Source: an uncultured Verrucomicrobiota bacterium (GTDB lineage: Bacteria > Verrucomicrobiota > Verrucomicrobiia > Limisphaerales > UBA1100). Taken from it: a stretch of 53,344 nt of DNA. Both the position numbers and the translations under genes were made by a program. How positions within the stretch are numbered: the stretch's first letter is position 1; each line of letters begins with the position of its first letter. Below, piece after piece: positions 12,325 to 28,339 of this stretch. Location: assembly GCA_964616045.1 (NCBI GenBank), contig CAZTTU010000005.1, positions 1 through 53,344 on the forward strand, given 5' to 3'. A model generated the notes under the pieces. The model saw nothing but the letters and a program-made list of their open reading frames with translations. It was not told the origin of the DNA and made no database searches.

Positions 12325-13941
12325 CTATTCTTTCTCATTGGCGCCACCAAGCGTGACGCTGATCTTATATTTGTTCTGCAGATGCGCGTGGGCCCGACTG
12401 GCCTGACTGGCCTTGGGATACAGCTTACAGGTTTTCTGGAACCACTTGATTGCGTTTTCGCGCTGTCCGTATTGCTCGTAGGTGTAGCCAATGCTAATAG
12501 TGGCCTCGACAGCCGAGCCCTTGTCGACCCGGGCCTGATGGTACAACACCAACGCTTCCTTGTATTGATTGAGGCGCCGGTGACAGGAAGCCATCCGGAA
12601 ATACAAGCTGGGATATTTATCCGACTGCCGATAGCTCTGAATGGCTTCCTTCAATTTTCCGGTGGCTTCGTAGCATTCGGCGATACCCCAATACCAGTCA
12701 CCGAACCGGCCAGGCACAACCTTGAGCAGTGCCTGGTAGGCGGCGATGGCTTGATCCCATTTCTTGGCCTCACGCCAGGTGGTCACAATGTGTTCATGCC
12801 ATTCGCCTGCACGTTCTTTCTCCATTCCAATCAATCGGCTGTACACCGCCACGGCCTGGTCGTGCTTACCCTCATAACGCCGGTAAGTCCAAGCAATGTT
12901 CACCTGACCAGCCACCTTGTCCGCGAACTGCCCGTAAATGTTGCGCGCCTCGGCATATCGTTTTCGGCCGCGATGCCAACCGGCCTGTTTGCCGCGCAGG
13001 TCGTCATCCACTCCGATCAATTTGCCCAGCCGCGCGTACAATTCCAACCCCTCCGCATCCCGTCGCGCGTGGCTATGCACTCCAGCCATGATATAATAAA
13101 ACTCTCTCGCGCGAACGATGTTGGCATCATCCTTCAAGTCCTGCGGGATTTGCTGCTCAATAAACATAATCAATTCGTCGGCCAGTTTTTCCCCGACTTT
13201 CTTCCCCTCCTCTTTTCCAGTCAGCTGACTAATAGGACTTTGCGCATGCTGATAGAGTCGGCGCACCAGACTGGTGCCCTTGTATGTTGTCTCAAACGCC
13301 TTCAACCCATCTTGGAAATTGCCGGCATAAAAGTGGTGTTGCCCGAGGTAGCTTGCGGCGTGTGTGGTGTAGTAGCTACTCTCCTTGGTTCGCTTGGTTT
13401 TGAAGGCGAGGTCCTCCCAGACCTTAATCCGCTTATCTTCAGCCTTTTGTATCCGGTAAATTTCAGCAAGATCCCACTTGGCCAAGACGGCAGTATAATG
13501 ATCTGGGTGAGAAGCAATCGCACGCGCATAAGTTTTCTCAGCATTGGGTAATTCTCCCGTCGACTTATAACTCCTGCCTATAAGATAGGCTGCAAGAATA
13601 GCCTCATGTGAATCAGGCCAGTAATCAACCACAGACTGGAAGCCATCGCGAATGGCGGCATACACCTTGCGTTGCTTCACAAGGCAATGGCTCCACATGA
13701 GTTGCGCATAAGGCGCTGCTGCGCTGCGTTCATAAAGGGTCAGGAACTTTTCGTACTCCGAAGCCGCCACCTTGTATTCGCCCTTAAGATAGAACTTCTC
13801 CGCAATTTTCAACTGATATCGTTCCGTCTCGCGCATCTTGGCGAAGATATCCACGGGGATTTGTTCGAGATACGAAAGGGTCGCCGCAGAGGTTGGCAAG
13901 AGGCTCCAGCAAACGAGCATGCCAGTGAGGAATTGTTTCAT
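12325..13941 (-). CDS. Secreted tetratricopeptide-repeat protein
   Basis: Signal peptide MKQFLTGMLVCWSLLPTSAA; repeated TPR helices; ATGA overlap with the upstream gene. Confidence 0.85.
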   Translation of the reverse strand: MKQFLTGMLVCWSLLPTSAATLSYLEQIPVDIFAKMRETERYQLKIAEKFYLKGEYKVAASEYEKFLTLYERSAAAPYAQLMWSHCLVKQRKVYAAIRDGFQSVVDYWPDSHEAILAAYLIGRSYKSTGELPNAEKTYARAIASHPDHYTAVLAKWDLAEIYRIQKAEDKRIKVWEDLAFKTKRTKESSYYTTHAASYLGQHHFYAGNFQDGLKAFETTYKGTSLVRRLYQHAQSPISQLTGKEEGKKVGEKLADELIMFIEQQIPQDLKDDANIVRAREFYYIMAGVHSHARRDAEGLELYARLGKLIGVDDDLRGKQAGWHRGRKRYAEARNIYGQFADKVAGQVNIAWTYRRYEGKHDQAVAVYSRLIGMEKERAGEWHEHIVTTWREAKKWDQAIAAYQALLKVVPGRFGDWYWGIAECYEATGKLKEAIQSYRQSDKYPSLYFRMASCHRRLNQYKEALVLYHQARVDKGSAVEATISIGYTYEQYGQRENAIKWFQKTCKLYPKASQASRAHAHLQNKYKISVTLGGANEKE

Positions 13942-15548
13942 TTGTCGTCCTTTTTCTTTCGGGCCTGAAGCCACTTGCTGTACTCAGCGTGGGAGTAGAT
14001 TATCACGTTTCCACCGAGCCGATAGCAAGCCTCATAAACACCGGTGGGCACCCCGGCATGACCGTCCGCCCAAGCATCCCCGATATCGCCGGGATGATAA
14101 TACGCCACCAGCCGGCTTTCCACCACCCATCCGTAGGCAGTCCTGCCTCCATGCGGCGCCACAATCGGAAGAAACGGCATGCCGCGATGGACGGGATGAT
14201 CCAGTGGCACCTTGATCGGCTCCACATCCGGCAAGACCTGGCGCATGGTATTAAAAAACTGACTGTGCCAACCAGGGCTGCCACCATTGTCGGCAAAGAG
14301 CATGCCGTGCTTATCGGTGAGATACTCCCGCAACACCTCGATTTCGCTTCGTGAAAATGAGATATTTCTCTGGCCAGTCATGTAAACCATTGGCGGGCTC
14401 TTGCCGATGGGGAACTTGGCAAGTTGCCCCAGGGTGCGCACCTCCGGCTTGGCAGCAATCTCGTGACCGGTATTGGCAGCATACCAAACAAGCATGTTTA
14501 GATCAGAGTTAAGGCCAAGATCCTGATCCCAATCTCCACCAGCATACCGAAGGCGAATAAAGCGAACTTTTCCTCGGCGTGTGCCTCCAGCAAAACCCGC
14601 GCCCTTTCCTTCTCCTTGCCCTACCTGATAAACATGCTTGGTTATCTCCAGAAGCTCCAACTTGATCTGCTCGATGGGAGGGGGATTGAATAGAATGGCG
14701 CTGTAAGGATTGATCACATATTTTTTGCGAATCACCTTCTTGATCTTCACCACCTTCTGCTTGAGTTGCTCCTCGCCGCCTCCAGCAGGCAATTCATAAA
14801 TCTCCCCGCAACCGGAGAATGAAAACAACATCCACAGCACCAAAAACCACCCAGTGTAAAATGTAACGGCACAGAAAGACTGTTTCAGCTTTTGCCGGCG
14901 GCGGCCATAATACCACGCGCCCTGATCCACCGGGTTCCACAACCCGCCTTGGCAGGTACTCGTACAGGATGATATTACCGCCAACAAATAGCCCAACATC
15001 ACCACTCCTATGAGCCCCCCTAAAATCAGAAAGTACACCTTGCTCAGCGTGGGCAGAAAGCCATGCAGCAGCCAAAATAGCAATCCCAGCAGGCCCAGGA
15101 AACCGACAACAACCACAGGCACCCAAGCAAATCGCGCGAGCTCACTGGGCTCACCCGCAGAACTATTCATGGCCTCAAGTGGGCCTATCTTCTTTAACTG
15201 CCCCCCTGTGACAGTTTTGCGCAGTAATTGGAACTGACGGGATTTCCTCTCAACAAACCAAATCACCCAGAGCAATCCTCCAACAAACAATACAAACAAT
15301 AACGCCCGCCCGACCATGGCGAAGATCCTGTGCCATTCAATCCAGCCAAAGTGATGCGCAATATATACCAGCCAAGTCCACAATGGAATTACGCCTATAG
15401 ACAGCACCAGCCACTGGACCCATTGCGACCAGCCACGATTCCGTGTCCACAGGAGCAGGACCGCAGCCACCACTGCGGAGGTGGCCACGCAGCCAATACT
15501 GATAATGAGCCACCAAAAAAAGGAGATTTCCTTTAATTCCACGATCAA
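13938..15548 (-). CDS. Membrane protein with C-terminal DUF4159 domain
   Basis: About 6 N-terminal TM helices, then RLRYAGGDWD...PMVYMTG...LREYL...GMLFADNGG...PLDHPVH...GDAW...LGGNVIIY. Confidence 0.78.
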   Translation of the reverse strand: MIVELKEISFFWWLIISIGCVATSAVVAAVLLLWTRNRGWSQWVQWLVLSIGVIPLWTWLVYIAHHFGWIEWHRIFAMVGRALLFVLFVGGLLWVIWFVERKSRQFQLLRKTVTGGQLKKIGPLEAMNSSAGEPSELARFAWVPVVVVGFLGLLGLLFWLLHGFLPTLSKVYFLILGGLIGVVMLGYLLAVISSCTSTCQGGLWNPVDQGAWYYGRRRQKLKQSFCAVTFYTGWFLVLWMLFSFSGCGEIYELPAGGGEEQLKQKVVKIKKVIRKKYVINPYSAILFNPPPIEQIKLELLEITKHVYQVGQGEGKGAGFAGGTRRGKVRFIRLRYAGGDWDQDLGLNSDLNMLVWYAANTGHEIAAKPEVRTLGQLAKFPIGKSPPMVYMTGQRNISFSRSEIEVLREYLTDKHGMLFADNGGSPGWHSQFFNTMRQVLPDVEPIKVPLDHPVHRGMPFLPIVAPHGGRTAYGWVVESRLVAYYHPGDIGDAWADGHAGVPTGVYEACYRLGGNVIIYSHAEYSKWLQARKKKDDK

Positions 15549-15556
15549 TCGATTTT

Positions 15557-16213
15557 CTATTTGCCTAATGGATCAACCAGTAGATCGCCCTTATTCTCAA
15601 ATGGATTCACTTCCTTGGGCTTGCCGGTTTTCTCCTGGCCCACGCCAAGCACATCTGCGGGTTTATTCTCTTTCGGCTTGCTGACAGGGGTGATCAGTTC
15701 AATATTGGCCTTCCCTTTGGATGCCTTCTCCTTTTCACGCGCCTCTTCAATACGGGAAACCGCTTCACTTTTACTTTTGCGCCAAACATTCACTCCATAG
15801 GGCACAACGGTAAGAACCACGAGCAGGATAATAATAGCAACTGTGGAAATTATCGTGCTCAGCACCAAGGTGCTTTGGGCAATGGCACCGAGCATTTCGC
15901 GTGGACTTTTGCCGCGCATCTCGCGCATGAATTCCCGCAACTCACTGACGGTGACCGAAGAGTTGCGTTTGAGGTTCTTGAAATCCCGCGAAATGCTCGC
16001 CATAGGCTGCACCCCGCCACCACTTGCGACTGGCGAACCAGCACTGGACCCCACCGAAAGCCGCAGGACTTCAGCCACCGTACCCCACTCAGTGTCACCT
16101 TCCAGAAGAGCAGGATCATCTGGCTTAAGACTGTCGGCGTTGACCAACCCCTTTACCTCATCAACCGTCAGGGGGCCGCGCTTTTCTCCATCGTCTACCA
16201 CGTAGATGTTCAT
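15557..16213 (-). CDS. GYF_2-domain single-pass membrane protein
   Basis: IYVVDDGEKRGPLT...DDPALLEGDTEWGTV (GYF_2-like); one TM; short Lys/Pro-rich tail. Confidence 0.75.
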   Translation of the reverse strand: MNIYVVDDGEKRGPLTVDEVKGLVNADSLKPDDPALLEGDTEWGTVAEVLRLSVGSSAGSPVASGGGVQPMASISRDFKNLKRNSSVTVSELREFMREMRGKSPREMLGAIAQSTLVLSTIISTVAIIILLVVLTVVPYGVNVWRKSKSEAVSRIEEAREKEKASKGKANIELITPVSKPKENKPADVLGVGQEKTGKPKEVNPFENKGDLLVDPLGK

Positions 16214-16225
16214 TATTCTTCCCAA

Positions 16226-16639
16226 TCAGGGCGCTGCAATTTTCTCTTCCTCCAATATATGATGCAGCTCACCGCCAGCTTCACTAATTGCCTCAATGAC
16301 CGGCTCAAAATATACCGCCGTTACCTCATGGTGCACCTTTACCATTACCGTTCGTTTCCCGGAAGGGTTTTCTCCCAGCAACACCTTTAACTCCTCTGCC
16401 AGTGCGTTCACGGAAGTTTTTCGACCGTTCAGGTGAGTTACATTATGTTTATCAATCACCACGCTGGCATTCATCGTGTCGGGACGCACCAATTCCTGCC
16501 CAGGTGCCGGCTTCCATTGAAGATGACTGTCATCCCGCGCGCGGGCAAGGATCACGAAAAAAATTAACAGCAAAAATGCAATATCCCCCATCGCCATGGC
16601 GGGTATCGTTGCATCCATCTGCCTGCGTTTAACGATCAT
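16226..16639 (-). CDS. exbD: ExbD/TolR-family motor subunit (second copy)
   Basis: MAMGDIAFLLLIFFVI TM with the conserved Asp; periplasmic domain ending VIEAISEAGG. Confidence 0.88.
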   Translation of the reverse strand: MIVKRRQMDATIPAMAMGDIAFLLLIFFVILARARDDSHLQWKPAPGQELVRPDTMNASVVIDKHNVTHLNGRKTSVNALAEELKVLLGENPSGKRTVMVKVHHEVTAVYFEPVIEAISEAGGELHHILEEEKIAAP

Positions 16640-17058
16640 TTTACCTGAACGGTTTGTTCCTCCTCCAATTGCAGCGTAATCACGCCACCAGCACCCTCAA
16701 TAAGTCCTGTCACGTGAATCCAGTGGCTGTAGGGTACTTCTTTGCGGCTCTTAACCGTCACGATTTTATCCTCCTCACGGGTTTTATCTGCAAGCTTAAT
16801 GGCAATGGTCTTTTCAAAACGATCCGGTGTAAGCGGATTTCCATTTAAGATCACCGCATTACGCGTAAGTTCCACCTCAATGTTCTGGCTTTGCTTTTTT
16901 TTCTCCTTTTCAGGCTCACTCCGCGGCAGTGTCTGCGCCCTGCCCTTGTCCGGCTCCACGGAGGCGCAGACAAGAAAAAACACGATCAGTATAAACGCGA
17001 TATCGCTCGTGGCGCTGGCTGGCGGTTCCAGCAATAAACTGGTACGGCGCAGTTTCAT
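16636..17058 (-). CDS. exbD: ExbD/TolR-family motor subunit (first copy)
   Basis: ATSDIAFILIVFFLV TM with the conserved Asp; VPYSHWIHVTGLIEGAGG. Confidence 0.88.
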   Translation of the reverse strand: MKLRRTSLLLEPPASATSDIAFILIVFFLVCASVEPDKGRAQTLPRSEPEKEKKKQSQNIEVELTRNAVILNGNPLTPDRFEKTIAIKLADKTREEDKIVTVKSRKEVPYSHWIHVTGLIEGAGGVITLQLEEEQTVQVK

Positions 17059-17912
17059 GAATCCGATCGTTCCTCGGCTTTTTTCAGGGTGAGTTGCAGC
17101 GTCACCGCTTCCATCAACTCCGCAGCGGTTTCCTCTACATCAAGAACGAAGTTATTGATCACACTCGAGAAATAATTAAACGCCATGAAAGCCGGGATGC
17201 CTACCATCAACCCAAAACACGTGGTCAGCAGTGCAATAGAAATGCCCGATGCAGCTGCCTGAATGATGTTACCACCTCCGGACTCATCCATCTCAACGAT
17301 GTTATCGAAGGCAACAATCATGCCCTGTACAGTGCCCAGGAACCCAAGCATTGGCGCCACACTAGACACAATGGCGAGCACAGGAAGGTGCCGCTCCAAA
17401 GCTGCTACAATATGCACCCCATAACTTTCCATGCTTTTAACTACCTGCTCCTCCAGCCTTGCTGGGTCGTAGTTGAGCCGATTCAACACCATGTACTTCC
17501 TTAAACCGTTGGCAAGAACTGCCGCCACTGGCCCACGCTCCCCATCGCAACGTTCCAATGCCTCCTCCACTCGTTCATTGGTCAAGTCATCAAGCACAGC
17601 TTGGCGCAGGGCTTCGGTATTAGTGTCCAACATTTTCAGGCTACGCCATCGTTCAATAATTACCGCCAATGCCATGATGGCCATGATGAGGATAGGCCAC
17701 ATAAAAAAGCCGCCCTCCAGTAGCAGGCCAATGGCACCAGAATCGAATAAATCCGAAATCCATGACGGTTCAGCAACTGCTTCAACACCCGAGTCAGTTC
17801 CCGCTTCTGGTGTGGGCGCAGATTCTACGGATGCTGCGTTAGTTCCGCCGACATTCGTGGCGGAGGAATTCTTGTCCACTTCGTTGGTGACCTGGGCAAA
17901 TTGGACTAACAT
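17055..17912 (-). CDS. exbB: MotA/TolQ/ExbB proton-channel protein
   Basis: GGFFMWPIL...ERW, APMLGFLGTVQGMI and GISIALLTTCFGLMVGIPA. Confidence 0.92.
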   Translation of the reverse strand: MLVQFAQVTNEVDKNSSATNVGGTNAASVESAPTPEAGTDSGVEAVAEPSWISDLFDSGAIGLLLEGGFFMWPILIMAIMALAVIIERWRSLKMLDTNTEALRQAVLDDLTNERVEEALERCDGERGPVAAVLANGLRKYMVLNRLNYDPARLEEQVVKSMESYGVHIVAALERHLPVLAIVSSVAPMLGFLGTVQGMIVAFDNIVEMDESGGGNIIQAAASGISIALLTTCFGLMVGIPAFMAFNYFSSVINNFVLDVEETAAELMEAVTLQLTLKKAEERSDS

Positions 17913-17963
17913 GGGTCTGGGGTGAACAATTTGCTCAATTGCAAAGGAGCTTGGCCGCTCGGG

Positions 17964-20900
17964 TTAATTGTCATTGTCAATAGAATTAGCCTCGCTTTCG
18001 AATTGGGACAACATTTCCGGCAAGGCAAGGCGACCTCGTGCGTACTTTGCCGCATCACTCTCTGGGAAATCCCAGCGACAGCGATTATAACGGCGGAAAG
18101 CAAAAGACACATTGTTGGCGCTACGATAGCTTTCGCCTGCCCAGAATAACGCCTCTGAACACAATGGATCGTCCGGAAACTTCTTTGCAAAGAGGTCAAA
18201 CACCCCGCCGGCCTTGGCGAAGCCCTCATCCTTGTAATGGCACTGCCCCCAACGAAATGCCATTTTCGGAGCAAACTCATGGTCGGCAAAGCGATCCATG
18301 AATTTCTCAGCAACCTTCGCAGCGACTTTGTAATTTTCCCCCTTATAAAAATACTCGTTGATGCGGATCATCACGTTCGGGATCAGCGGATTCTTGGGAT
18401 AGGTCGCAGCCAGAGTAACATATTCCTCCAATGCACGATCGAAGTCATTCGCCTCTTCAAAACACTGCGCCAGTTTGTACTGCGCATCCGCAGCCAGAGT
18501 GTGGTTTGGATATTGCCGAACAATGAGCGCGTAACTGTTGGCGGCTTCATTCCAATCCTCCAGCTCCTGCGAGAATTGCCCACTCAGGTAGGCAATACGA
18601 GGCAGATATTTCGGATCTGGATAATCAACCATGATCTCCTTAAGAACCCGTCGACCCGCCTTGAGTGCTTTTTCACTTTCATCCTCACGCTCAAGTTTCA
18701 GGTTATTCTTGAATAATTCAAAATAGCTCTCGGCAATGTGGAATTGGGTCTGTACGGCGAGCTGTTGATTGCCAAATATTTTACTGAACGCCGAAACAAT
18801 TCCATCGGTACCAATCGCCACAGGCAACTCAACACTAAGCTCCACCTCGCCTTCTTCCGCTCCTGAGGCGGCATCTAAGTAGGTAGCAATAAGCTTGTCA
18901 CCAAAGAAGCACTCTATCTCCCTGTCAATATCGCTGAAGTTTAACGCAGTGGGTTTTTCACGCGCCTTCAATTCGAACGAGCCTACAAAAACGCCACTGT
19001 GACTAAGGGTTTCCTCCAAGGTCACTTTCTCGTTCTCCCCAGTTCCAGTGGCAATGCCTAACTCCGCCTTGTCTCGATCATCGGATATATCGAGATCAGG
19101 GTCGGCTATCATAACATAAAGTTTTTCTCCCACGCGCAACAGCTCCGTTGATTTTTCATAACCCTCGTCGGTTATGGCCATGGAACCATCCGTTACAAGC
19201 CGTGCCTTTGAGGATAAATCGACAGCCGTGGCATCCGGACGCACCTGGTCATGGTAAATGGCAGAAAGCAGCGACTTGCCGTTCACATTAAGCACGGTAT
19301 CCAGCAAGTTGTTGGATTCAGTTTCCTTATCCTCACCCGCGGGACGGGCAAGACCAGTAAGTCCAGAGCCGGAGCCCAGTGAGCGAGGCAGTCTAGAAGG
19401 GGAAGCCACGCCACCCAATTGCATTTTAACCTGACCCACAAATCTCCCCATCATGAGGGCGGCACTGGCTTGGCCTGATTCAACCCCAGAGACATCGCCG
19501 AATTGGGTGGATAACACACAAGTAATCTCCACCGCATTGGTGGTGCCGGCATCCAACTGCACGGTCACAGTACTCAAACTGTCCTTAGCAGCGTCGGGAT
19601 CGACTACCACCACAGTCAACGGCACGAAATAGTTCACACCCACAGGTTCTTCCTGACCTTCAGTTGCCGGCAGGAAAACCGCTTGCGGCTTGGCCTCACT
19701 GTCGGGCTGAGGCACGGTTCGGCGAGTACCGATGATGCGCATCACGCCATCGGTCGGTTCATTGGCAAAAACCACGGCCTCGCGTTGAACGGAATGACCG
19801 GGAAAGGTGTTCTGCAAATCCACATACCGACAAAACACTCGATCTCCCTTCCCGATCACCAGCTTTTCGCCATCGGCCTCTGCGGCAGTGTCGACCTCCA
19901 CCCGGAAAACACCGGAGTATTCCCCGATTTCGGTCGCGGTGAGTTCTTTCCATTTCACGCCGTTGGCCCAGATTTCCACAGGTACGGTATCGCGCTCATC
20001 GGTTTGGTCCATGTCGTAGTCAGTCACTTCAAAGGTGATGCGATCACCCGGGTCGATGCGCAGCAATTCCTTGCGCGTTTGCTGCACGCCACCTCCGACA
20101 TTGCGACTGAAGTCAAAACCGATTGGCAACACCTCCGCGTTGTTGTAGGTGGCCTGAAGTTCCCGCGTAAGCAACCGGCTACCACCTTGTGTGGCAATAG
20201 AGGTTTCGTCGGTATAACTGGCGGTAATCACGTCGCCACCGGCAATCTCCAATGTCTCATTCTCGGCCAACGTGCTCACGTCCACCTTGGTGGGGATAAA
20301 CGTTTTGTCTCCGTTTCGAATTTCAACGTGATTAATCGCCACCGAGTCACCCAAATATTCATCTATCTGGAACCGGGCGTAGCGTAATTTCACCGGATCG
20401 AAGAAAAATTCCCATTCCCGGTCGCGCTGGACCATTCCCACTTTCTCAGCCGGCCGCAATTCCAAGCCGGCCACATCCATCAAGCCACTGCCCTTGATTT
20501 CCAGCGGCTTGATCGAGAGCGCCTGTGGATCGGCAGAATCCACCATCATTATGCCTACCCGATGCCAAGCAAACGTGTTCCAGCCACCAGTCTTGGGCAC
20601 CTCCATTTCGATCAATTGATCTCCAAATTCCACGCGAAATTTCGATCCTCCATCCTGATGTGACAAATTCACCCACAACTCATACGCGCCGACATTGGGC
20701 ACCGTAAACAGCCACTTCATCGTGTCTTCTATATTCTTCCAATTTCCGATACGCTGAGCATTGTTTACGGTGATCACTCCGAATTTTTCGGTTTTTACGT
20801 GAAACTCCGTCTTGTTCATGTCCATCTCAATAGATTTTTGTGCGACGACAGCTTGGTCGGGCTTTAGGTCCAGGAATCTCTTGGCTGACTCCAAGTCAAA

Positions 20901-23900
20901 ATCCTCCACGGTAAAGGAATTCAATTGAGGATTGCTATTACTGTAATTGGATCGCGCCCGGGTGGCCTCGAGTGGTTTTTTGGCCGTCTTGTTCGCGACA
21001 AAGATGGCAATCTCATGTAAGCCAGAAGTCAGCCATACATCCACCGTTTTGACCTCTGCGGAGGGTTGCATCACCACCCGGCCATCCACAACCACGGCGG
21101 CCAAGTCACCCGTCACGCCAATGCGCATTGCGCCTTCCCGTAATTGCACTATTTGACCGTTCCACAAAGACGCGTGCGGCTGGTCGGCACCCTCAGCATT
21201 CGGCTCAGGAATCCACGACAATTCCGTGGCGTTTTCATCCAATATCGGTTTACCCGTGCGAGAAAGCGATACCACTTGGGACCAACTCTTAAGGCCAGTA
21301 TGGTCTCCGGAATAAATTCGCTGCCGTAGCTGGTCGGTTCGACCGGATACCGCTTCAGCTTGAGGCAGCATGGGGTGCGCAGCGATGGTAAACCAAAAAA
21401 CTCCGTCATGGCTGCCTAGCAGTGTACCACGCACAGGGTTGTTTTCCGAAGCATTGGGTGTGGCCACGCGCAAACGAGAAACGGTGTGCAGTTGTTTCAT
21501 GTCCACCGTCAGCAACTTAGGTGTTACGCCGTCAGGCTCGGATTGCCAGTAAGTATCACTGCTATGATCGATGGCCATCAGCGGGTTATGGTCAATTGCG
21601 CTGTCAGTGGCAGACGCGCCGGCGGGTAGCTCGGAAGTAGGAATGGCCGCGCGGAATTCGCCTGTGTGAGGCCCGGTCTCCAGCAATTCCACCTGCACCT
21701 GATCACCACTATTCGCTCGCAGGGTCACAGCCACCCGGTCGGGCTCATCACCAAGATCGCGGTCAACATCTTGCAGGCGCATGAAAATTCGGTTGCCTGG
21801 CTTTACTTGGTTGGATGGACGACCTTGGGAAACACGTCGGTCCTGATCTGCTTCTTCGGCCTGTTCGCGCTGAAGTTGTTGAGTGAGGGTTTCCTTTTCC
21901 ACGTCCACAATCTCACTGCTGGCCACATCAAATTGACCATCGGCTGCAATGCGTATTTCCACATCGCTAAGCGGCACGGTGCGAAACTGCGCCTTAAACT
22001 TAGCCGGGTAATCACTCTCGATCACGTCACGACCGGTGAGTTGTAGCAGTCCGTCATTTTTTTCCATGACACCCAGAGTGGTATCCACCTCTCCGCGGAA
22101 CAATCCTTTGCCAGCACCTGCCGTGCTGCGCAAATACACCAGTTCCTCATCGCCACCGGGTTTTGTGGTGACTACCACTGGAATACGATTTTTCCCGCGG
22201 CTCACACCCAAATCACGATCGTGCACCACGATGGACAATGCGTTTCCCGGAACATGCAAACGCTTACTGGCCTGTCCCAGTCGACCAACAGTACGCAGAA
22301 GGTTCAGCTGCTGCAGGTAACGCTGCTCCAGTCCGTAAATTTCCGACAAACTAAACAAGGTTCGGTTGGCCAGCTCCACATCCGGCACGCGCTCGAGGAT
22401 ATGCTGGAATTTCTCACGAGCCTCATCACGTTGTTCCTGCCGAAATGCCAGAAGGCCGTTGAGGAACTCTGCACGGATCGAAATTTGCAAATCCGGATTT
22501 TCTTCCAGTGATTTGAACATTTGGGAAGCTTGATCGTAGATTTTCTGACCCATGAACGATTCCCCAATACCAAACTTAGCCTCAATGGCGTGTGGTGTGC
22601 CGGAATAACGATTAGTCACCGTGGAATACTCCGCGCGCGCCACGTCATAGCGCTGCCCCTTGTAGTAGCTCTTGGCTAGCAATAGCTGCAAACGCGCCTT
22701 TGCGGTCTCACTTTGCTGCTTACTTTCGGGCTTATCGGGATCGGTAAACTTAATCAACCAGGAGCGCAGAATGTCCTCCACCTCCGCCAATTTTTCCTCG
22801 CCACCACCCGCCATCAGATGGGTGCAAACAAATTCAATCAAGTCCGGCGGCAGGTCGTTGCGATGCTCCTTAAACAACTCCACGTTGTCTTGATACAGCT
22901 CACGCGCCTTATCCCTGTCGCCCAGTCGAAGGTAAAGTGCCGCCTGCAACAGTGGAGCCAGCGGGCTGTCCTCGTCAATCGTCAACCCCACCGCGCCCAT
23001 GCGTGAATGAGCACGCAGCACCGCACCACGGCCTTCATCTTGTGACTCTTTTGAGGAGCTGGTTATGTTTGACAGCATACCCGTCAGAAGTGTTGCACTA
23101 TCGACGTAACGCTTCGCCTCAAAGGTCTTCTGCGCGTAGCTACGGATTGAGTTCCAGCGAGTCTGGTCATTGTTAATCGACTGCAAACGACCATTGGCCT
23201 GCGTAATTCGCATCAGCCGTAACAATCGCTGCATTGCGGGCTCCTGATCCAAGGCTCCCGCCAAGAGCAGATCACAGGTAGAATATGCTGATTGGTCACG
23301 CGTACGAATATCGCGCAAGACCTTGTAGACACTCAACTTGGCCACATCGTCCAGCACCTTAAAATCCTTATATGCTGGGTCTTCACTCTCAGTTAAAGTC
23401 TTGTTGTTATAGGCAAATTCACGCCAAGTATAACCCACGTCACGCCAACTCTGGCTTGCAAATGGCGTTTCCCTCGCCGTCGCCCGCAGCTTTTGCACAG
23501 CCTGTGAAAAAGCCGGAATATTACCCTGCAACCGCAGGATATCCGTGATCTTAAGGGCCGCAATCCGGTGTTTCAGATCCGGCCAACGATAATCGGCCTG
23601 CTCGCGCCATGGCTCAGGAGGATTACCGCCGTTGGCAAGAAATCTCTCCGCGCAATTACGCTCCTCATATCGGCCATGGGAAACGTTCGCATCAGACACT
23701 CGCCGCCACCAGTCCAACGCCTGTGTCTTTTGGTTGAATTTGTAGAGCACATCTCCGACATAGTCGCTGTAGGCAGTATCAATTGGAATCTTGATCGCCC
23801 ACTGATATATGGCCAGCGCCAGCGCAGGATCCTTGTTTAATTCGGCAACCTGCATCAGGCTGCGAACCAATCCGGAATTGCCTCTCTTCAAGGGTATACG

Positions 23901-25934
23901 CAAAATGCGCTGGGCATAGACCTTGGCTTGCGCCTTGGTCTCTTCGTTTCGGTTATCCTCCATCACCCATTGCAATGCAGTGTGATCATTGGGGTGTAAT
24001 TTCAGGAGCAATAATCCCAGTTGGTGCGCACGTTCCGGGTCACGTTTCTTGGCATAGCTGAACAATGTGCCGCGTTGGGTGCCGACGATGTGAAATTGAT
24101 TGTTTCGACCCATCTGAGCTAATCCCTTGATGGCCGCTGCGCGAACTGTCACGGCTTTTTTGGAGGAGGTTGAAGCTGATGAATAGTGCGTGATAGCCGC
24201 CAGCAGCGGTTCGGTGTTCTGCTTGGCCACTTCCGCGGCGATATATTGGGCCTTGGCCTTTTGATCCTTGTTGCCCTTATTAGCCGTGGCCCATCCCGGA
24301 AGGTAGTTTCGGTAGTTGTTGTCCAGAAAATGATCTCGCCGCTGCTTGAGCATAAGGGCCACGTCGGCGCGGAACTGGTTATTCAACGACTGGCGCGTCA
24401 ACAAGTCCTCGAACATCGAGGCCATCCAGCTGGAGTAAATTGCCACTTCCTTCACCGCCAAGCGCGCGTGAGCCAAGGCGGTGGCCTCGTTCTTCATCCG
24501 GTCCCGATACAGGTTGCGCGACAGCACGATCCGCAGGCCCAGCTTATCGGAGGGTCGCTTGGCCTGTGATATGGCTGCGGTAAGCGTACGACTGGCCTCA
24601 TTGGCTAGGGTGTTCACCGTGTTTTGCTTTGCGGCATGTGCGGCTGTATCAGTGCGAAATTTAACTTCAAGCGCTTGGCGCGCCTTCACGGCGTTGTCAT
24701 AGGCCACCTTGGTAGTCATTTTTGCGTCAGGATTCTTCGTCTTATTAAAAGTATCCAGCTTGATTTTCTCGTCCTTCCGGGCATTTTCCAGACTAGTCTG
24801 GGTCGCCATCTTGGTGCTGTTGGCTGTGTTGAGTTCACCCACCGCCTTGTCCATTAGCCACGTCACGTAGTTGGCCGCCATGCTGCCATCTCCAGCGGCA
24901 TGGGCCAGAGCCGGAACCACCGCGCGCGCAGCACGCATTGTATCTCCTTCGCGTGCATAGGCATTACCAATGCGATTGTAGTTACTCCAGCGCGCGTGCT
25001 CATTGGGAAAACGGGCGGCAAAGGAATTAACCTCCGGCACGATCTGAGCAGCCTTCATCGCAGCCTGATACATGGCGTAGATTTGCCGCTCATGCAACTG
25101 CCACCCTTCATTTGGCCGCCAACCTTCACCTTGACCGCGCGCCTGCTTCAAAGCCACCACGGCGTTGGCCCATTGGCTTTGGGAAATGAAATTTTCGGCC
25201 TGCAGCCGATATAATTCATGCCGAATGAGGCGCGTAAGTGGCAGCCCACCTTTCTTGAACATCTTCTGGATAACCTGATTGGATTCAACCCAGCGACTAA
25301 GATAACGATACTCACTCACCGCGCGCAAACCGGCGCGCAGGGTGTATTCGCCGCCGGGCAGTCTATCCAACAAGCTCTCGGCCATTTGAGCTGACCGTAT
25401 GCGCAAACGAGGATCCCCCTCTTGCCCGTACAACTCCGAGGCGCGCTCAGCCGCCGGTCGATTGGCGGCAACTGGCTTATGTTCCCACAAAAGACGCAAT
25501 GCATCAGCAGCCTCTCGTCGCTTCCGGTTACGCTCCAAGGCATCCGCCACGCGCAGCGCAACATCCAATGCCTCGGTTGAGCCAGAATATCGCGACAGGT
25601 ATTGACGCCCAACAGTGATAAGATCGTCGCGGCGAGCCATTACCTCTAATCCATCGATTAACTTTAACATCACCTCGCGGTGCTTGGAGTGCTTACTTTG
25701 TGCCTTTACGAATCTTTCACTCACACGCACCAAACCGAATACTCGACCTTCCTGGTAATATAGGTCAGTCAGTTCCAACATAACTTTGGCTGCTGCAGGC
25801 GAGGTATCAAGGCTTTTGGTAAGTTGGGTTTCCAACGCGGCAGCCTGTTTATCGATTGCGCTGGATTCAGGTTTATCAGCAGCCGACAGGAGTAGCGGGC
25901 ATGCGAGGAGAAAAACAATAAATCGGATTATCAT
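17964..25934 (-). CDS. Giant secreted TPR protein (2656 aa) with Ig-like repeats and discoidin-, PA14- and CBM6/35-like domains
   Basis: Signal peptide; N-terminal, central and C-terminal TPR arrays; five Asp-rich D-x-D...(ET)..(S/T)G.F beta repeats; AIDH...TYWQS...LTVDM (F5/8C-like); VPKTGGWNTF (CBM6/35-like). Confidence 0.85.
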   Translation of the reverse strand: MIIRFIVFLLACPLLLSAADKPESSAIDKQAAALETQLTKSLDTSPAAAKVMLELTDLYYQEGRVFGLVRVSERFVKAQSKHSKHREVMLKLIDGLEVMARRDDLITVGRQYLSRYSGSTEALDVALRVADALERNRKRREAADALRLLWEHKPVAANRPAAERASELYGQEGDPRLRIRSAQMAESLLDRLPGGEYTLRAGLRAVSEYRYLSRWVESNQVIQKMFKKGGLPLTRLIRHELYRLQAENFISQSQWANAVVALKQARGQGEGWRPNEGWQLHERQIYAMYQAAMKAAQIVPEVNSFAARFPNEHARWSNYNRIGNAYAREGDTMRAARAVVPALAHAAGDGSMAANYVTWLMDKAVGELNTANSTKMATQTSLENARKDEKIKLDTFNKTKNPDAKMTTKVAYDNAVKARQALEVKFRTDTAAHAAKQNTVNTLANEASRTLTAAISQAKRPSDKLGLRIVLSRNLYRDRMKNEATALAHARLAVKEVAIYSSWMASMFEDLLTRQSLNNQFRADVALMLKQRRDHFLDNNYRNYLPGWATANKGNKDQKAKAQYIAAEVAKQNTEPLLAAITHYSSASTSSKKAVTVRAAAIKGLAQMGRNNQFHIVGTQRGTLFSYAKKRDPERAHQLGLLLLKLHPNDHTALQWVMEDNRNEETKAQAKVYAQRILRIPLKRGNSGLVRSLMQVAELNKDPALALAIYQWAIKIPIDTAYSDYVGDVLYKFNQKTQALDWWRRVSDANVSHGRYEERNCAERFLANGGNPPEPWREQADYRWPDLKHRIAALKITDILRLQGNIPAFSQAVQKLRATARETPFASQSWRDVGYTWREFAYNNKTLTESEDPAYKDFKVLDDVAKLSVYKVLRDIRTRDQSAYSTCDLLLAGALDQEPAMQRLLRLMRITQANGRLQSINNDQTRWNSIRSYAQKTFEAKRYVDSATLLTGMLSNITSSSKESQDEGRGAVLRAHSRMGAVGLTIDEDSPLAPLLQAALYLRLGDRDKARELYQDNVELFKEHRNDLPPDLIEFVCTHLMAGGGEEKLAEVEDILRSWLIKFTDPDKPESKQQSETAKARLQLLLAKSYYKGQRYDVARAEYSTVTNRYSGTPHAIEAKFGIGESFMGQKIYDQASQMFKSLEENPDLQISIRAEFLNGLLAFRQEQRDEAREKFQHILERVPDVELANRTLFSLSEIYGLEQRYLQQLNLLRTVGRLGQASKRLHVPGNALSIVVHDRDLGVSRGKNRIPVVVTTKPGGDEELVYLRSTAGAGKGLFRGEVDTTLGVMEKNDGLLQLTGRDVIESDYPAKFKAQFRTVPLSDVEIRIAADGQFDVASSEIVDVEKETLTQQLQREQAEEADQDRRVSQGRPSNQVKPGNRIFMRLQDVDRDLGDEPDRVAVTLRANSGDQVQVELLETGPHTGEFRAAIPTSELPAGASATDSAIDHNPLMAIDHSSDTYWQSEPDGVTPKLLTVDMKQLHTVSRLRVATPNASENNPVRGTLLGSHDGVFWFTIAAHPMLPQAEAVSGRTDQLRQRIYSGDHTGLKSWSQVVSLSRTGKPILDENATELSWIPEPNAEGADQPHASLWNGQIVQLREGAMRIGVTGDLAAVVVDGRVVMQPSAEVKTVDVWLTSGLHEIAIFVANKTAKKPLEATRARSNYSNSNPQLNSFTVEDFDLESAKRFLDLKPDQAVVAQKSIEMDMNKTEFHVKTEKFGVITVNNAQRIGNWKNIEDTMKWLFTVPNVGAYELWVNLSHQDGGSKFRVEFGDQLIEMEVPKTGGWNTFAWHRVGIMMVDSADPQALSIKPLEIKGSGLMDVAGLELRPAEKVGMVQRDREWEFFFDPVKLRYARFQIDEYLGDSVAINHVEIRNGDKTFIPTKVDVSTLAENETLEIAGGDVITASYTDETSIATQGGSRLLTRELQATYNNAEVLPIGFDFSRNVGGGVQQTRKELLRIDPGDRITFEVTDYDMDQTDERDTVPVEIWANGVKWKELTATEIGEYSGVFRVEVDTAAEADGEKLVIGKGDRVFCRYVDLQNTFPGHSVQREAVVFANEPTDGVMRIIGTRRTVPQPDSEAKPQAVFLPATEGQEEPVGVNYFVPLTVVVVDPDAAKDSLSTVTVQLDAGTTNAVEITCVLSTQFGDVSGVESGQASAALMMGRFVGQVKMQLGGVASPSRLPRSLGSGSGLTGLARPAGEDKETESNNLLDTVLNVNGKSLLSAIYHDQVRPDATAVDLSSKARLVTDGSMAITDEGYEKSTELLRVGEKLYVMIADPDLDISDDRDKAELGIATGTGENEKVTLEETLSHSGVFVGSFELKAREKPTALNFSDIDREIECFFGDKLIATYLDAASGAEEGEVELSVELPVAIGTDGIVSAFSKIFGNQQLAVQTQFHIAESYFELFKNNLKLEREDESEKALKAGRRVLKEIMVDYPDPKYLPRIAYLSGQFSQELEDWNEAANSYALIVRQYPNHTLAADAQYKLAQCFEEANDFDRALEEYVTLAATYPKNPLIPNVMIRINEYFYKGENYKVAAKVAEKFMDRFADHEFAPKMAFRWGQCHYKDEGFAKAGGVFDLFAKKFPDDPLCSEALFWAGESYRSANNVSFAFRRYNRCRWDFPESDAAKYARGRLALPEMLSQFESEANSIDNDN

Positions 25935-25951
25935 GGTATCAAATTAGAGGG

Positions 25952-28339
25952 TTAAAATCCGCCCTTGGCGAGAGCCTGAGCAATACGCTTAGCCTCGGGA
26001 GCCAACTGGCTCTGGGGAAATTCGTCAATCAACTGGTCAAACCGCTTTCGAGCCTCCCCTTTGCGCTCCATTCGATAGAGACAGCGACCATAGTTGAAAA
26101 GGATCACATCCAGAAAATTACCGTCGGGATAATCGGAAAGGACTTTCTCAAAGACATCCACCGCGCGCGCGTAATCTTTTCTTTGGTAATAGAAGCTAGC
26201 CATCTTGGCGACAGCATCTCCAACCTTGCCGCTTTCTGGAAATTGGTCAAAGACCGCCTTGTAAGCCAGAAAGGCACGCTCATACATTTGCCCATTATTA
26301 CCACCCGCTGCCTTGGCCATTTCCTCATAGCATTCACCAATGCCGTATTGCCCTTCCCCTCGCAGCTGACTCTTTGTCAACCGTGTGAGGTTATTGTAGA
26401 GAGATACAGCGCGCGCGTAGTCTCCGGATTTCTGAGCCACACGTGCTTGTTGCAATATGGCTTCATCAAGGTAAACACTCTCAGGAAATTCCCGCTGCAG
26501 GCGCAGGCTCATGGCTGCAGCAAGATTTAGGCGATCCATTGCAAAATAAATACGCCAGAGCTGCACATAGGTTTCCTCCAACAAGCTGCCACCAATTTTG
26601 CGCGCTTCATCGGCAATCTCTTCGCCAACGCTCAGTGCTTCCTCATATTTAAGTTTCGCTTTAGCATCGAGGCCAAAATCACGATATTGGGTGCCGATTT
26701 GGGTTAGCGCACTGGCGGTTTTGAGCTTCGTCTTAAGTGCCAGCTCGGCGTCGTTGATTTCCGTACGGGTCACGCGCACTCCGCCAAGGTTGCCTTCCAC
26801 GCACTTGGCCTCGCGGGTCAAATCGCGCGGGCCGGCAGTGATGTTCAACTTATCGGTGTAGCTCAGGCGAATGAGATCTCTGGGCTGCGCCTGCAGCTTA
26901 GCATCTCCCTTCACCACTTCAGCCACAGATTCCACGGGCACGGTACCGCGGAAAACACCGGTGTGTATTGTGCCATCACTCACCAAATCCTCAATCTCAC
27001 TCACCAAATCCTCTCCCACGGGTGACTTGGGTGGATCAACAGTGCCTTCACGCCCGATGGAATCCTCATCACCATCGCCAATATTGGCAGGCTTGGGCGT
27101 GGGCTTTTCAATAAGGCCATCATCGCCCGCGCGCTCTGCCTCGGTAAGCGACAGCACCACGGTATCAATCACTTTGTACGGATCCACCTCTTCCTCGGCC
27201 TCCTCAGGATCAGGCACGACCGGCTTGGGCTTGTTGATGGTCTCGGCGATGAGCTTGGCTTTTTCCTCCTCGATCTCCGCAGGGGTCTTTTGCCTCAATA
27301 CATCGACCTTCACCGTCAGGGAATCAGCTTTATCGCTCACGTCGCGATCAGCATCGGCCACCTGCAGATTGGCTTCCTTGCCCAGCACCACACCCTGCAA
27401 TGCCTCGGCAAAGGCACCGTCCATCACTTGCACCATCGCATTGCCCACCACAGTCACTTGTTTTTTTCGCACTGTATCAAACTTGCGATCGGCCGTGTGA
27501 GAATCCACGTAGTCCACTTCCACCTTGGCGGTGCCAGTCACCTCAAGGACGCCATTGCCCTTGCGCGGCTCACCCAACCGTGTGGGAATTGAACCCAACG
27601 CCAAGCGCACATTGCGGCCGACAGACCGGCACTCAACCAGTTCCTCATCGCCCTCGGTGGTACGAACTTTTACCTGCACAGACTCTTCCTTCTCCAGGAT
27701 CGCCAGATCAGCGTCCTCAATCTTCACAAAGAACCGCTTGCCTGCCTCGAGCTTCTCAGCATTCTTGTCCTTCTGGCCAACAGCCGTACCCACCTTTTCC
27801 AACGCGGAAATAGCCCGACCATAATGACCCTGTTTGAAATGGCCCAAACCAATGTAGTAATAGGCTTCGTTCACCTGCTCGGCGACTGGAAATTCCGCAA
27901 TCACCTTGCGCATCACCTTGTAACATTGCCCATAGTGGCGCCCTTCAAAGAGGCAAACGCCCACCTTCAGGGTAGCCGCAGCACGTTGCTCTTCATCTTT
28001 GTTTTCTTCACTGGCTACCGCGTCAAAACTCACACGGGCTTTATCATAGGCATTACCCTTGGTTAGATGATACTCACCCAGTTTCATATGTGCCTGATAA
28101 CGAACTTTACTACGCGGATACCGCTCGATGACAGATTGCCAAATTTCGACGGCCTTTTCCTCCTCGCCCGCATCATAGCGCAGATCGCCGGCCTGAATGA
28201 GCTTGCGCGCCGCGCGATCCTCAATGATGGAACCCCGGGGTGGTTTCGCTGGCGCAGCACCGGCATTTAGAAGGACATTTGATCCGATAAAAAGAAAGAC
28301 AACCCCAATGGTAACAGGTCTGGAAATCATGGCTAACAT
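25952..28339 (-). CDS. Secreted TPR protein with Ig-like inserts (795 aa)
   Basis: Signal peptide; TPR arrays at both ends; central IEDADL.../VADADRD...HTGVFRG repeats like those of the giant protein. Confidence 0.85.
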   Translation of the reverse strand: MLAMISRPVTIGVVFLFIGSNVLLNAGAAPAKPPRGSIIEDRAARKLIQAGDLRYDAGEEEKAVEIWQSVIERYPRSKVRYQAHMKLGEYHLTKGNAYDKARVSFDAVASEENKDEEQRAAATLKVGVCLFEGRHYGQCYKVMRKVIAEFPVAEQVNEAYYYIGLGHFKQGHYGRAISALEKVGTAVGQKDKNAEKLEAGKRFFVKIEDADLAILEKEESVQVKVRTTEGDEELVECRSVGRNVRLALGSIPTRLGEPRKGNGVLEVTGTAKVEVDYVDSHTADRKFDTVRKKQVTVVGNAMVQVMDGAFAEALQGVVLGKEANLQVADADRDVSDKADSLTVKVDVLRQKTPAEIEEEKAKLIAETINKPKPVVPDPEEAEEEVDPYKVIDTVVLSLTEAERAGDDGLIEKPTPKPANIGDGDEDSIGREGTVDPPKSPVGEDLVSEIEDLVSDGTIHTGVFRGTVPVESVAEVVKGDAKLQAQPRDLIRLSYTDKLNITAGPRDLTREAKCVEGNLGGVRVTRTEINDAELALKTKLKTASALTQIGTQYRDFGLDAKAKLKYEEALSVGEEIADEARKIGGSLLEETYVQLWRIYFAMDRLNLAAAMSLRLQREFPESVYLDEAILQQARVAQKSGDYARAVSLYNNLTRLTKSQLRGEGQYGIGECYEEMAKAAGGNNGQMYERAFLAYKAVFDQFPESGKVGDAVAKMASFYYQRKDYARAVDVFEKVLSDYPDGNFLDVILFNYGRCLYRMERKGEARKRFDQLIDEFPQSQLAPEAKRIAQALAKGGF

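Follow-up and report, generated by a model that had tools for sequence, protein, structure and literature searches.

The subject of this work is an eight-gene operon in a 53,344-nucleotide (nt) stretch of DNA (the window), corresponding to contig C5 in an assembly of 2.88 Mb and 210 contigs from an uncultured Verrucomicrobiota bacterium (~87% complete, with contamination of ~4.8%). The operon spans positions 12325 to 28339 on the minus strand, where eight co-oriented, tightly packed open reading frames (ORFs) are found. Pfam and NCBIfam searches place the genes, and assign their domains, as a preliminary description of the window had done. First in the direction of transcription is a gene for a secreted tetratricopeptide repeat (TPR) protein of 795 amino acids (aa) (25952..28339), in which Pfam finds TPR families only, behind a hydrophobic N terminus. 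It is followed by a gene for a secreted giant TPR protein of 2656 aa (17964..25934), with a signal peptide, Pfam TPR and DUF5077 matches, and a middle part that was modeled with AlphaFold2 (AF2) and searched with Foldseek. Three motor genes come next, for an ExbB/TolQ-like proton-channel subunit of 285 aa with three transmembrane (TM) segments (17055..17912; PF01618, MotA_ExbB, E 5.3e-25) and for two ExbD/TolR-like subunits with one TM segment and an Asp19 each, ExbD1 (140 aa; 16636..17058; PF02472, E 1.5e-14) and ExbD2 (137 aa; 16226..16639; PF02472, E 3.5e-12). The last three genes encode a GYF-TM protein, here called the stalk (222 aa according to the ORF tool; 15557..16225; GYF_2, 28.2 bits against a cut-off of 25.8), a multi-TM inner-membrane protein with a DUF4159 domain (536 aa; 13938..15548; PF13709, E 2.8e-28), and a third secreted TPR protein, TPR549 (538 aa from the ATG at 13941; 12325..13941; Pfam TPR families and a signal peptide).

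ATGA overlaps join ExbB to ExbD1, ExbD1 to ExbD2, and the DUF4159 gene to TPR549, and the remaining intergenic gaps are 17, 51, 0, and 8 nt. The three overlaps had been noted before and are real, the third one by way of the ATG at 13941, which it requires as the TPR549 start; this start yields a signal peptide, whereas the GTG at 13974 chosen by the ORF tool yields none. TPR549 is translationally coupled to the DUF4159 gene. Orthologues of the stalk gene begin at an ATG 12 nt inside the ORF-tool start. As gene order is conserved across two phyla, the clustering is far beyond chance. Among the 44 window ORFs scanned with Pfam there is no TonB_C, TolB, OmpA/Pal, or Plug domain, in keeping with the earlier statement that a TonB C-domain, TolB/Pal, and a receptor are missing. 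By the same means, no beta-barrel, adhesin, vWA, MoxR, or DUF58 domain is found in the operon, and no ABC, secretin, flippase, or other export component in the gene cluster. We conclude that the eight genes very probably encode one machine driven by the proton motive force, with a motor of the MotA/ExbB/TolQ 5:2 class, and that it is a distinct variant conserved in the Planctomycetota-Verrucomicrobiota-Chlamydiota (PVC) bacteria.

The hallmarks of the 5:2 superfamily are present in the motor genes, with one three-TM channel of PF01618 and two PF02472 partners with a TM Asp. A TM scan places the ExbB segments at residues 59-89, 175-196, and 216-246, behind an N-terminal extension of ~55 aa. The TM Asp, which both ExbDs had been said to keep, aligns with D25 of Escherichia coli ExbD and with the TolR Asp, and is conserved in 36/36 ExbD1 and 32/32 ExbD2 orthologues. 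By analogy with AglQ and AglS of the Agl-Glt system, ExbD1 and ExbD2 probably pair as a heterodimer. When scored against NCBIfam equivalogs, ExbB reaches 110.5 bits with TolQ (cut-off, 221) and 64.4 bits with ExbB TIGR02797 (cut-off, 206.2), so that its best score, with TolQ, is still under the cut-off. ExbD1 has 30.7 bits with the TolR equivalog (cut-off, 127.3) and ExbD2 has no match. All other PVC ExbB-type paralogues tested likewise fall under the TolQ and ExbB cut-offs.

From a quick tree of 27 ExbB-type proteins, in which branches are long and no reference comes from Myxococcus, separateness can be read but deeper relationships cannot. The operon ExbBs of both phyla form one clade (13 rows; Shimodaira-Hasegawa-like approximate likelihood ratio test [SH-aLRT], 99), whose sister group (91) comprises the ExbBs from a paralogous DUF4159 operon, while E. 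coli TolQ and ExbB group elsewhere together with the genome's own Tol motor (98). On this tree and the equivalog scores, the operon motor is neither canonical ExbBD nor the Tol system of this genome. A phylogenetic comparison with ExbBD and TolQR had been proposed as a check, and its outcome is a clade of the motor's own, with scores under both equivalog cut-offs.

The DUF4159 domain aligns over profile positions 1-201 of 202 (99.3 bits, Pfam) and follows an N-terminal multi-TM part that varies in length and sequence. Two cytoplasmic motifs, PLEAMN and AWYYG..KLKQS, are seen in the protein, and from the second one onward it is highly conserved, with 58-63% identity to Planctomycetota-titled rows of the alignment. 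The last TM segment (residues ~215-248) is preceded by a strongly basic stretch (RRRQKLKQS) and ends in a near-invariant, lipobox-like SGC, and a linker of ~85 aa separates it from the DUF4159 domain. By the positive-inside rule, the domain would be periplasmic. The SGC thus forms an internal lipoprotein-signal-like element within a multi-pass protein, and could serve either for lipidation or for a cleavage that cuts off the variable membrane part at the N terminus and frees a DUF4159 lipoprotein. No His is present in the last TM segment in the alignment. In one relative (locus L021, ORF 2136-7781, minus strand), the DUF4159 gene lies within an 1881-aa frame with a very long N-terminal extension.

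An AF2 model of the DUF4159 protein, built with 45 sequences (pLDDT, the predicted local distance difference test, of 77.6), closely matches 4i66, a structural-genomics protein, both by Foldseek (E 4.3e-9, TM-score of 0.76) and by VIA (Z 21.7, root-mean-square deviation of 1.9 over 183 residues). Weaker fold matches, with Z of 7.5-10, are to class-I glutamine-amidotransferase-like and ThuA-like proteins, the GIFT domain of IFT52, and OST48. As modeled, DUF4159 is a GATase1/GIFT-like fold. The Cys nucleophile of amidotransferases is absent, with the elbow reading FADNGGS, and alignments reveal many invariant His and Asp residues in the domain. A vWA domain is not found by Pfam at E 0.01, nor is one among the VIA matches listed for the model. 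The second DUF4159 protein of the genome (24% identity, E 4e-11) shares the motifs W..D, DLN, HP.H, and H..D.GD.W, and its gene sits in a MoxR / BatA-vWA / TPR-peptidase cluster on contig C50. Across 1016 clusters at E 1e-30, public databases give the orthologues no name other than "hypothetical protein" or "DUF4159 domain-containing protein", and in the literature searched DUF4159 is named solely in the Pfam database paper.

An alignment of ten orthologues divides the stalk into five parts: the GYF domain, a juxtamembrane helix, a TM segment, a variable linker, and a C-terminal motif of ~30 aa. The cytoplasmic juxtamembrane helix is highly conserved (ELRxFMREMRGKSPREMLG), the single TM segment (about residues 113-149) is poorly conserved, and the linker is rich in P, A, K, and E. 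Neither Pfam nor the alignment shows a globular C-domain, only the conserved terminal peptide motif. As judged from the alignment, the stalk is TolA/TonB-like in topology, yet has no C-terminal domain.

The GYF profile of the stalk matches the solved GYF structure of GltJ/AgmX, 7z3c (E 5e-6). In Pirellulaceae loci, the gene at the same position encodes a protein of 137-160 aa that has no GYF and retains the helix and the TM segment, along with a linker that is acidic and a terminal motif that is related; comparison by hhalign gives a probability of 96.9% (E 1.5e-10). As these orthologues do without it, the GYF is, on this comparison, an evolutionary add-on and not a core part of the operon. 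GYF_2 is moreover greatly expanded across the 2.9-Mb genome, with 45 matches at E 0.001 and 42 above the Pfam cut-off, which makes the similarity to GltJ unspecific. The GYF-TM protein of the preliminary description is therefore real in this operon but not part of its core. Many of the GYF_2 matches are on ORFs of 175-630 aa, some of them in tandem on contigs C81 and C40, and three GYF_2 ORFs lie in the window, all on the minus strand (370-1695, 1589-3100, and 15557-16225, the last being the stalk gene).

All three TPR proteins carry N-terminal signal peptides, seen as hydrophobic N termini. Two of them exceed the cut-off of the YbgF/CpoB model TIGR02795 (90.1), the 795-aa protein with 104.4 and the giant with 124.4, both scores being summed over 4-5 repeat stretches in far larger proteins. 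NCBIfam also reports weak BatC-like TPR matches. The 795-aa protein consists of N-terminal TPRs, a middle part like that of the giant, and a C-terminal YbgF/CpoB-type TPR block. It matches residues 1095-1466 and 2312-2595 of the giant (tblastn), looks like a short paralogue of the second half of the giant, and has orthologues of 51-77% identity in 7 related loci. The giant itself, whose orthologues measure 2300-2690 aa at 37-80% identity, has a helical/TPR N-terminal half, a beta-sandwich middle (~1230-2100), and a YbgF/CpoB-type TPR block (~2418-2644).

In the middle part of the giant, DUF5077 is found at residues 1726-1826 (25.1 bits; cut-off, 24.6), and residues 1443-1519 resemble F5/8-type-C and NedA-like galactose-binding domains, both below threshold (24.1 versus 28.2 and 24.9 versus 27.8). 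The AF2 model of residues 1050-2150 is no more than fair in quality, with a pLDDT of 63.7 overall, and of 75-90 at fragment residues 410-830, and shows TPR helices followed by several beta-sandwich domains. Its best Foldseek matches are sensor domains like a carbohydrate-binding module (CBM), an arabinoxylanase CBM, carbohydrate-binding PA14, and complement MG domains; an ESM Atlas search with residues 500-2400 returned TPR clusters only. The modeled beta domains are consistent with glycan binding and are not proof of it. The labels "Ig" and "lectin" given earlier to the TPR proteins are borne out insofar as the model contains beta-sandwiches resembling CBM and PA14 domains, but Pfam finds no Ig match in these proteins and the lectin hits stay below threshold.

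The operon is patchily distributed and well conserved where present. With the DUF4159 protein as the probe and E < 1e-100 as a strong match, such matches occur in 17/30 other genomes of the family and in 1/30 genomes drawn from 30 other families of the order. In six of eleven loci from related genomes the full set of eight genes is found with unchanged order and orientation, and in the other five every gene reached by the contig is present. A scan of 185,579 species genomes gave 308 relatives, of which the best 80 were used for locus counts; here a gene was counted only where the flank of the locus was long enough, and had to be on the same strand and the right side. TPR549 is present in 71/72 loci, directly downstream of the DUF4159 gene, followed by ExbD2 (59/63), ExbD1 (58/62), ExbB (55/59), the giant, adjacent upstream (44/51), and the stalk (54/67). 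The gene-neighborhood check suggested in the preliminary description thus finds the order recurring in both Verrucomicrobiota and Planctomycetota. Since some loci keep the block from the motor to TPR549 without an adjacent giant, we take this block to be the core.

Verrucomicrobiota titles among the best 80 loci are Pedosphaera/Limisphaerales, Verrucomicrobiales, Opitutales/Puniceicoccaceae, Akkermansiaceae, Luteolibacter, and Prosthecobacter, and Planctomycetota titles are Rubripirellula, Rhodopirellula, Planctomicrobium, other Planctomycetaceae and Pirellulaceae, and Phycisphaeraceae. The closest named relatives are metagenome-assembled genomes (MAGs) titled Verrucomicrobiales bacterium or Pedosphaera sp. 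Cultivable genera represented among the carriers, by MAGs or isolates, are Luteolibacter, Rhodopirellula, Rubripirellula, and Planctomicrobium, and Verrucomicrobiaceae isolate E54 is a carrier as well. In two Verrucomicrobiales-titled MAGs (L053:5627-9779 and L059:7126-8709) a DUF4159-TPR pair has no motor upstream and is directly preceded by two sulfatase genes in one MAG and by one in the other. Of 400 sampled genomes of the phylum (at least 90% complete), none has an orthologue and two have relatives at 39-46% identity, while 10/71 sampled genomes of the Akkermansiaceae-type family carry the operon.

A tree of the DUF4159 part places Planctomycetota on one side of a branch (98/97) and has 2 changes of phylum label, where the minimum is 2 and the mean after shuffling is 12. 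The Verrucomicrobiota clade (98/97) includes an Omnitrophota-titled MAG (L055), the sole title from another phylum in the best 80, which nests with Opitutae rows (98/96) and points to a transfer or else to an error in binning or labeling. Recent transfer between phyla was considered as an explanation of the 58-63% identity and rejected, as the tree splits Planctomycetota off on one branch with the minimum of label changes. We read this pattern, sparse in the phylum but following phylogeny, as old inheritance with many losses and not as recent spread.

The paralogous operon that supplies the sister ExbBs is found in Akkermansiaceae-type genomes (L113-L117). It comprises a giant TPR gene (>2000 aa), a gene for a 112-121-aa protein, ExbB (210-214 aa), and two ExbDs, and further a stalk of 153-168 aa, a DUF4159 protein (31-38% identity), a 380-395-aa protein, and a 1322-1367-aa protein, the last gene being assigned to DUF6288/HEAT by Pfam in L113. 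Its stalk has a His in the TM segment, and a TM segment with such a His was seen only there. No homology between the two stalks was detected by hhalign (probability of 1%).

The genome has nine MotA/ExbB-family matches, which sort by their neighbors into two flagellar MotAB pairs, a TolQRAB locus on contig C85, two TPR-linked loci (C42 and C87), three others, and the window operon. The only TonB_C-like match found in the genome (25.2 bits) also lies on C85, within the TolQ-TolR-TolA-TolB cluster. Contig C42 (3000-18000) carries TPR1076-ExbB-ExbD and then a 1517-aa protein with PD40 and weak DUF6288 matches, and C87 (1-8000) carries TPR956-TPR913-ExbB at its end. Among PVC bacteria generally, large TPR proteins seem to be recurrent neighbors of ExbB/ExbD. 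The Plug domain of TonB-dependent receptors (PF07715) has 0 matches in the genome, of which 87% completeness leaves some doubt, and is absent from 3/3 further genomes of the family (90-95% complete). The lineage is thus rich in ExbB/ExbD motors and, to the extent that can be judged, devoid of Ton receptors.

Comparison with the Ton and Tol-Pal systems brings out both kinship and difference. The operon shares with Ton the ExbB and ExbD families and presumably the proton-driven transmission of force to the outer envelope; unlike Ton, it has no TonB C-domain (PF03544/PF13103) in the window and no Plug receptor in the genome or the three relatives. With Tol-Pal it shares the best match of ExbB (TolQ), the ExbD/TolR Asp, TPR repeats that score as YbgF/CpoB-type when summed, and a TolA-like stalk topology. 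In contrast to Tol-Pal, its TolQ and TolR scores stay below the cut-offs, TolA domain III, TolB, and Pal are lacking, it has two different TolR-like genes, and the true Tol cluster lies on C85. It differs, too, from Bat/MoxR-vWA operons, as the MoxR, DUF58, and BatA/B vWA genes that accompany the DUF4159 gene on C50 are absent here.

The Agl-Glt system of Myxococcus xanthus, in the accessible part of a published account (PMC11761067), combines a TolQ-like pentamer, a heterodimeric TolR-like plug, periplasmic TPR proteins, and a TM protein bearing a GYF domain. As far as that account goes, the operon resembles it in having one TolQ-like and two unlike TolR-like subunits with several periplasmic TPR proteins (GltC/D/E in Agl-Glt), and the stalk resembles GltJ in its cytoplasmic GYF, TM segment, and long disordered periplasmic linker. 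The domain resembling the TonB CTD (C-terminal domain), the FHA protein, the GltA/B/H/K barrels, and the CglB adhesin of Agl-Glt are not in the operon; Pfam domains of these barrels and of the adhesin are absent from the operon and the window, a result from Pfam and not from searches with Glt sequences. DUF4159 has no Glt counterpart, and the GYF has been dispensable in the evolution of the operon. The analogy to Agl-Glt drawn in the preliminary description, within what the accessible text allows, holds for the one TolQ-like and two TolR-like subunits, the TPR proteins, and the GYF match to 7z3c, but loses weight where the GYF is concerned, which is not core.

No publication on this operon was found in the literature searched. 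The Akkermansia MUL1 locus, which has been studied genetically, was reportedly described by Davey et al. in 2023. In the accessible accounts, mul1A (Amuc_0544) of Akkermansia muciniphila is a mucin transport gene needed for colonization, and the locus is held to perform receptor-independent glycan handling for mucin. A published expression table, as far as available, lists Amuc_0543-0549 as hypothetical proteins, ExbD/TolR, a hypothetical protein, MotA/TolQ/ExbB, and endonuclease III. We find the same order in a closed 2.65-Mb Akkermansiaceae-type genome (locus L118), with endonuclease III, ExbB, two ExbDs, a 104-aa ORF, a 1101-aa TPR protein, and a 347-aa protein. Like the operon, MUL1 is a PVC locus with one ExbB, two ExbDs, and a large secreted TPR protein, and no gene for a TonB-dependent receptor lies in the locus. 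Unlike the operon, the MUL1-type locus has no DUF4159 protein, stalk homologue, or giant, and its TPR protein comes after the motor, in reversed order. The MUL1-type ExbB is a long, unplaced branch in the ExbB tree, the 1101-aa TPR protein aligns with residues 2467-2632 of the giant at 22% over 166 aa (E 4.8e-4) in a generic TPR stretch, the 347-aa (Mul1B-type) protein has no match in the operon, and at E 1e-15 nothing in the MUL1-type genome matches the DUF4159 protein.

PVC gene clusters made up of TPR, tolQ-like, and two heterologous tolR-like genes and a vWA force transducer were published in 2025, from bioinformatics alone and with function unknown, as the accessible text has it (Mol Biol Evol; PMC12204202). 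In that text, they occur in the same phyla and likewise combine TPR with TolQ-like and two unlike TolR-like genes, after which comes a protein tethered to the membrane, in which a disordered linker is combined with an alpha/beta globular domain. Their transducer, as described there, has a single TM segment, an SHLS/His motif, and a vWA domain, whereas the operon has a multi-pass DUF4159 protein without the His and, separately, a stalk that lacks a C-domain. Judged by gene content and similarity, MUL1 and the PVC vWA clusters are sister variants that are not orthologous to the operon. The term "uncharacterized" in the preliminary description is accurate in that no orthologous system has been characterized, but the kind of system has already been published, as MUL1 and the PVC vWA clusters.

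In the mechanism that we propose, an ExbB pentamer would surround the ExbD1/ExbD2 heterodimer, as proposed for AglR5QS, and proton flow through it would move the stalk, by way of the juxtamembrane helix and TM segment, or the last TM segment of the DUF4159 protein, or both. The disordered linker of the stalk would cross the peptidoglycan and periplasm, and its C-terminal peptide would dock on a TPR module. Such docking has parallels, in that TolA docks on the TPR protein CpoB and GltG/J are predicted to dock on GltD. The pairing of the DUF4159 protein and TPR549 in 71/72 loci, together with their ATGA overlap, suggests that the two proteins bind each other. Energy from the inner membrane would thereby reach a periplasmic, outer-membrane-proximal scaffold of three TPR proteins.

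What such a machine would do is less certain than how it is built. The likeliest job that we can name, and one that we advance tentatively and with more doubt than assurance, is an energized capture of large glycans, or their passage into the periplasm, independently of a receptor. It is favored by the CBM- and PA14-like domains of the giant, its DUF5077 and below-threshold galactose-binding-like matches, the sulfatase neighbors in two loci, the MUL1 precedent, and reports of periplasmic polysaccharides. In the accessible part of one such report, aquatic Pedosphaeraceae keep laminarin stored in their periplasm, and aquatic Pedosphaeraceae and Akkermansiaceae accumulate polysaccharides there (PMC13174399). 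Taken as a single statement, the architecture together with the glycan job comes near to an even call, falling slightly on the doubtful side. The proposal of the preliminary description that the machine grips or moves glycans is not upheld on its own footing, having been drawn from lectin-like matches below threshold.

Several observations weigh against a role in glycan handling or against parts of the mechanism. The lectin-like Pfam matches of the giant fall under the curated cut-offs, and the Foldseek matches of its multi-domain fragment are generic beta-sandwiches with low TM-scores. The window contains no CAZyme (carbohydrate-active enzyme) or sulfatase genes, the flanks being housekeeping genes by Pfam, and no outer-membrane channel was identified for the operon. 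Orthology with the Akkermansia MUL1 locus was rejected, as L118 lacks DUF4159, the stalk, and the giant. The stalk shows no homology to E. coli TolA by hhalign (probability of 4%), the TonB/TolA-type His is absent from its TM segment in the alignment, so that its coupling to the motor is putative. The window DNA was found whole in two seawater metagenome runs, possibly its source, and no RNA run is among the runs that contain it. Finally, the best matches of the TPR units with the Tol-Pal partner YbgF/CpoB and of ExbB with TolQ fit envelope upkeep equally well.

This last point leads to the main rival, a second Tol-Pal-like system for envelope maintenance, in which motor and stalk would position CpoB-like TPR scaffolds for outer-membrane tethering, peptidoglycan remodeling, or constriction. 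The preference of ExbB for TolQ (110.5 versus 64.4 bits) and the TIGR02795 scores of the 795-aa protein and the giant, above the cut-off as summed repeats, speak for it, and so do the slow evolution of the DUF4159 part between phyla, the tree that follows phyla with the minimum of changes and so looks like an old, constrained cellular function, and the housekeeping neighborhood without CAZymes. Yet the genome already has TolQ-TolR-TolA-TolB on C85, the operon offers no TolB or Pal-like gene, and its sparse distribution (0/400 in the phylum sample, 1/30 in other families, and 10/71 in the Akkermansiaceae-type family) is unlike that of a core envelope function. On balance we hold this reading to be rather unlikely.

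Less probable still is an export or surface-assembly machine for a polymer, lipoprotein, or envelope appendage, with DUF4159 as an enzyme or chaperone and a link to the Bat/MoxR-vWA-TPR operons that are the usual setting of DUF4159. The second DUF4159 gene, with its common motifs and 24% identity in the cluster on C50, would fit such a machine, as would the weak BatC-like TPR matches and the invariant His and Asp residues, which suggest a binding or catalytic site; but the operon has no MoxR, DUF58, or vWA gene, the elbow FADNGGS has no Cys nucleophile at the GATase position, and the cluster holds no ABC, secretin, or flippase gene, so that we regard it as improbable. We find it very improbable that the operon is an Agl-Glt-type transducer for surface motility or adhesion, in which the motor would drive periplasmic TPR proteins that move an outer-membrane adhesin. 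The subunit plan of AglRQS, the several large periplasmic TPR proteins comparable to GltC/D/E, and the GltJ-like GYF protein with a disordered linker and a match to 7z3c invite that comparison. However, by Pfam the operon has no gene for a beta-barrel, an adhesin, or a vWA protein, the stalk is without a TonB-CTD-like domain, the GYF is missing in Pirellulaceae orthologues and so numerous in this genome as to be unspecific, flagellar stators are encoded elsewhere in the genome, and the DNA was found in seawater metagenomes.

Returning to the glycan job, a bolder version of it can be formulated, which we consider speculative and unlikely as a whole. Here the operon would be the missing engine of import across the outer envelope in receptor-less PVC bacteria and would haul polysaccharide chains, entire and with no TonB-dependent transporter, into the periplasm ("selfish" uptake); by way of a peptide-ended, TonB-like stalk and a GIFT-like DUF4159 anchor, the proton-driven motor of ExbB and ExbD1/ExbD2 would work the 2656-aa TPR/CBM arm, and MUL1 and the vWA clusters would be sister answers within a principle common to the PVC bacteria. 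Independently of this bolder version, marine Pedosphaeraceae, Akkermansiaceae, and Planctomycetota, most of them without SusC/TonB-type receptors, are reported to take up large glycans into the periplasm, and the operon is a concrete candidate for large-glycan uptake in such receptor-poor PVC bacteria.

One motor design powers very different envelope tasks in Ton, Tol-Pal, Agl-Glt, and flagellar stators, and each new coupling partner informs how motor force is passed on. We see the operon as an undescribed variant within a growing group of envelope systems driven by 5:2 motors, not as a categorically new kind. The variant is conserved from Verrucomicrobiota to Planctomycetota, and its unusual features are a transducer without a C-terminal domain, a DUF4159/GIFT-like membrane protein that is always present, and giant TPR scaffolds as the output. 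It would also supply the first functional context for the DUF4159 family.

Upstream of the operon, and uncertain in their membership of it, lie genes on the same strand for a DUF1501 protein (28501-29784) and a PSD1/PSCyt2 protein (29819-32032), both assigned by Pfam. The operon and the DUF1501 gene are 161 nt apart, and the gap contains a hairpin at 28455-28479 with a 9-bp stem (6 GC), which may be the end of the upstream transcription unit; a promoter and terminator scan stayed at chance level (11 versus 12.1 and 21 versus 20.0). The PSD1/PSCyt2 and DUF1501 pair is upstream in 6/7 related Verrucomicrobiota loci that reach that far, and several Pirellulaceae/Rubripirellula loci (L066, L071, L075, L086, and L094) have pairs related at the family level (22-27% identity) downstream of their last TPR gene. 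The association may be due to chance, as both families are numerous in PVC genomes.

Two flagellar loci of the genome, on contigs C89 and C8, are near-parallel, each with a Sel1/trypsin-like protein of 1060-1084 aa, a small ORF, a sigma factor, MotA, MotB, a small ORF, and FliD; the pair stems from a genuine duplication or else from the binning of two strains into one genome. Elsewhere in the window, on the plus strand, three proteins of ~300 aa (38883-39791, 44900-45835, and 46649-47584) carry a prepilin-type N-terminal methylation motif, and near them are an S8 subtilase (36380-38764) and a Ser/Thr kinase with a sigma factor (40027-41792).

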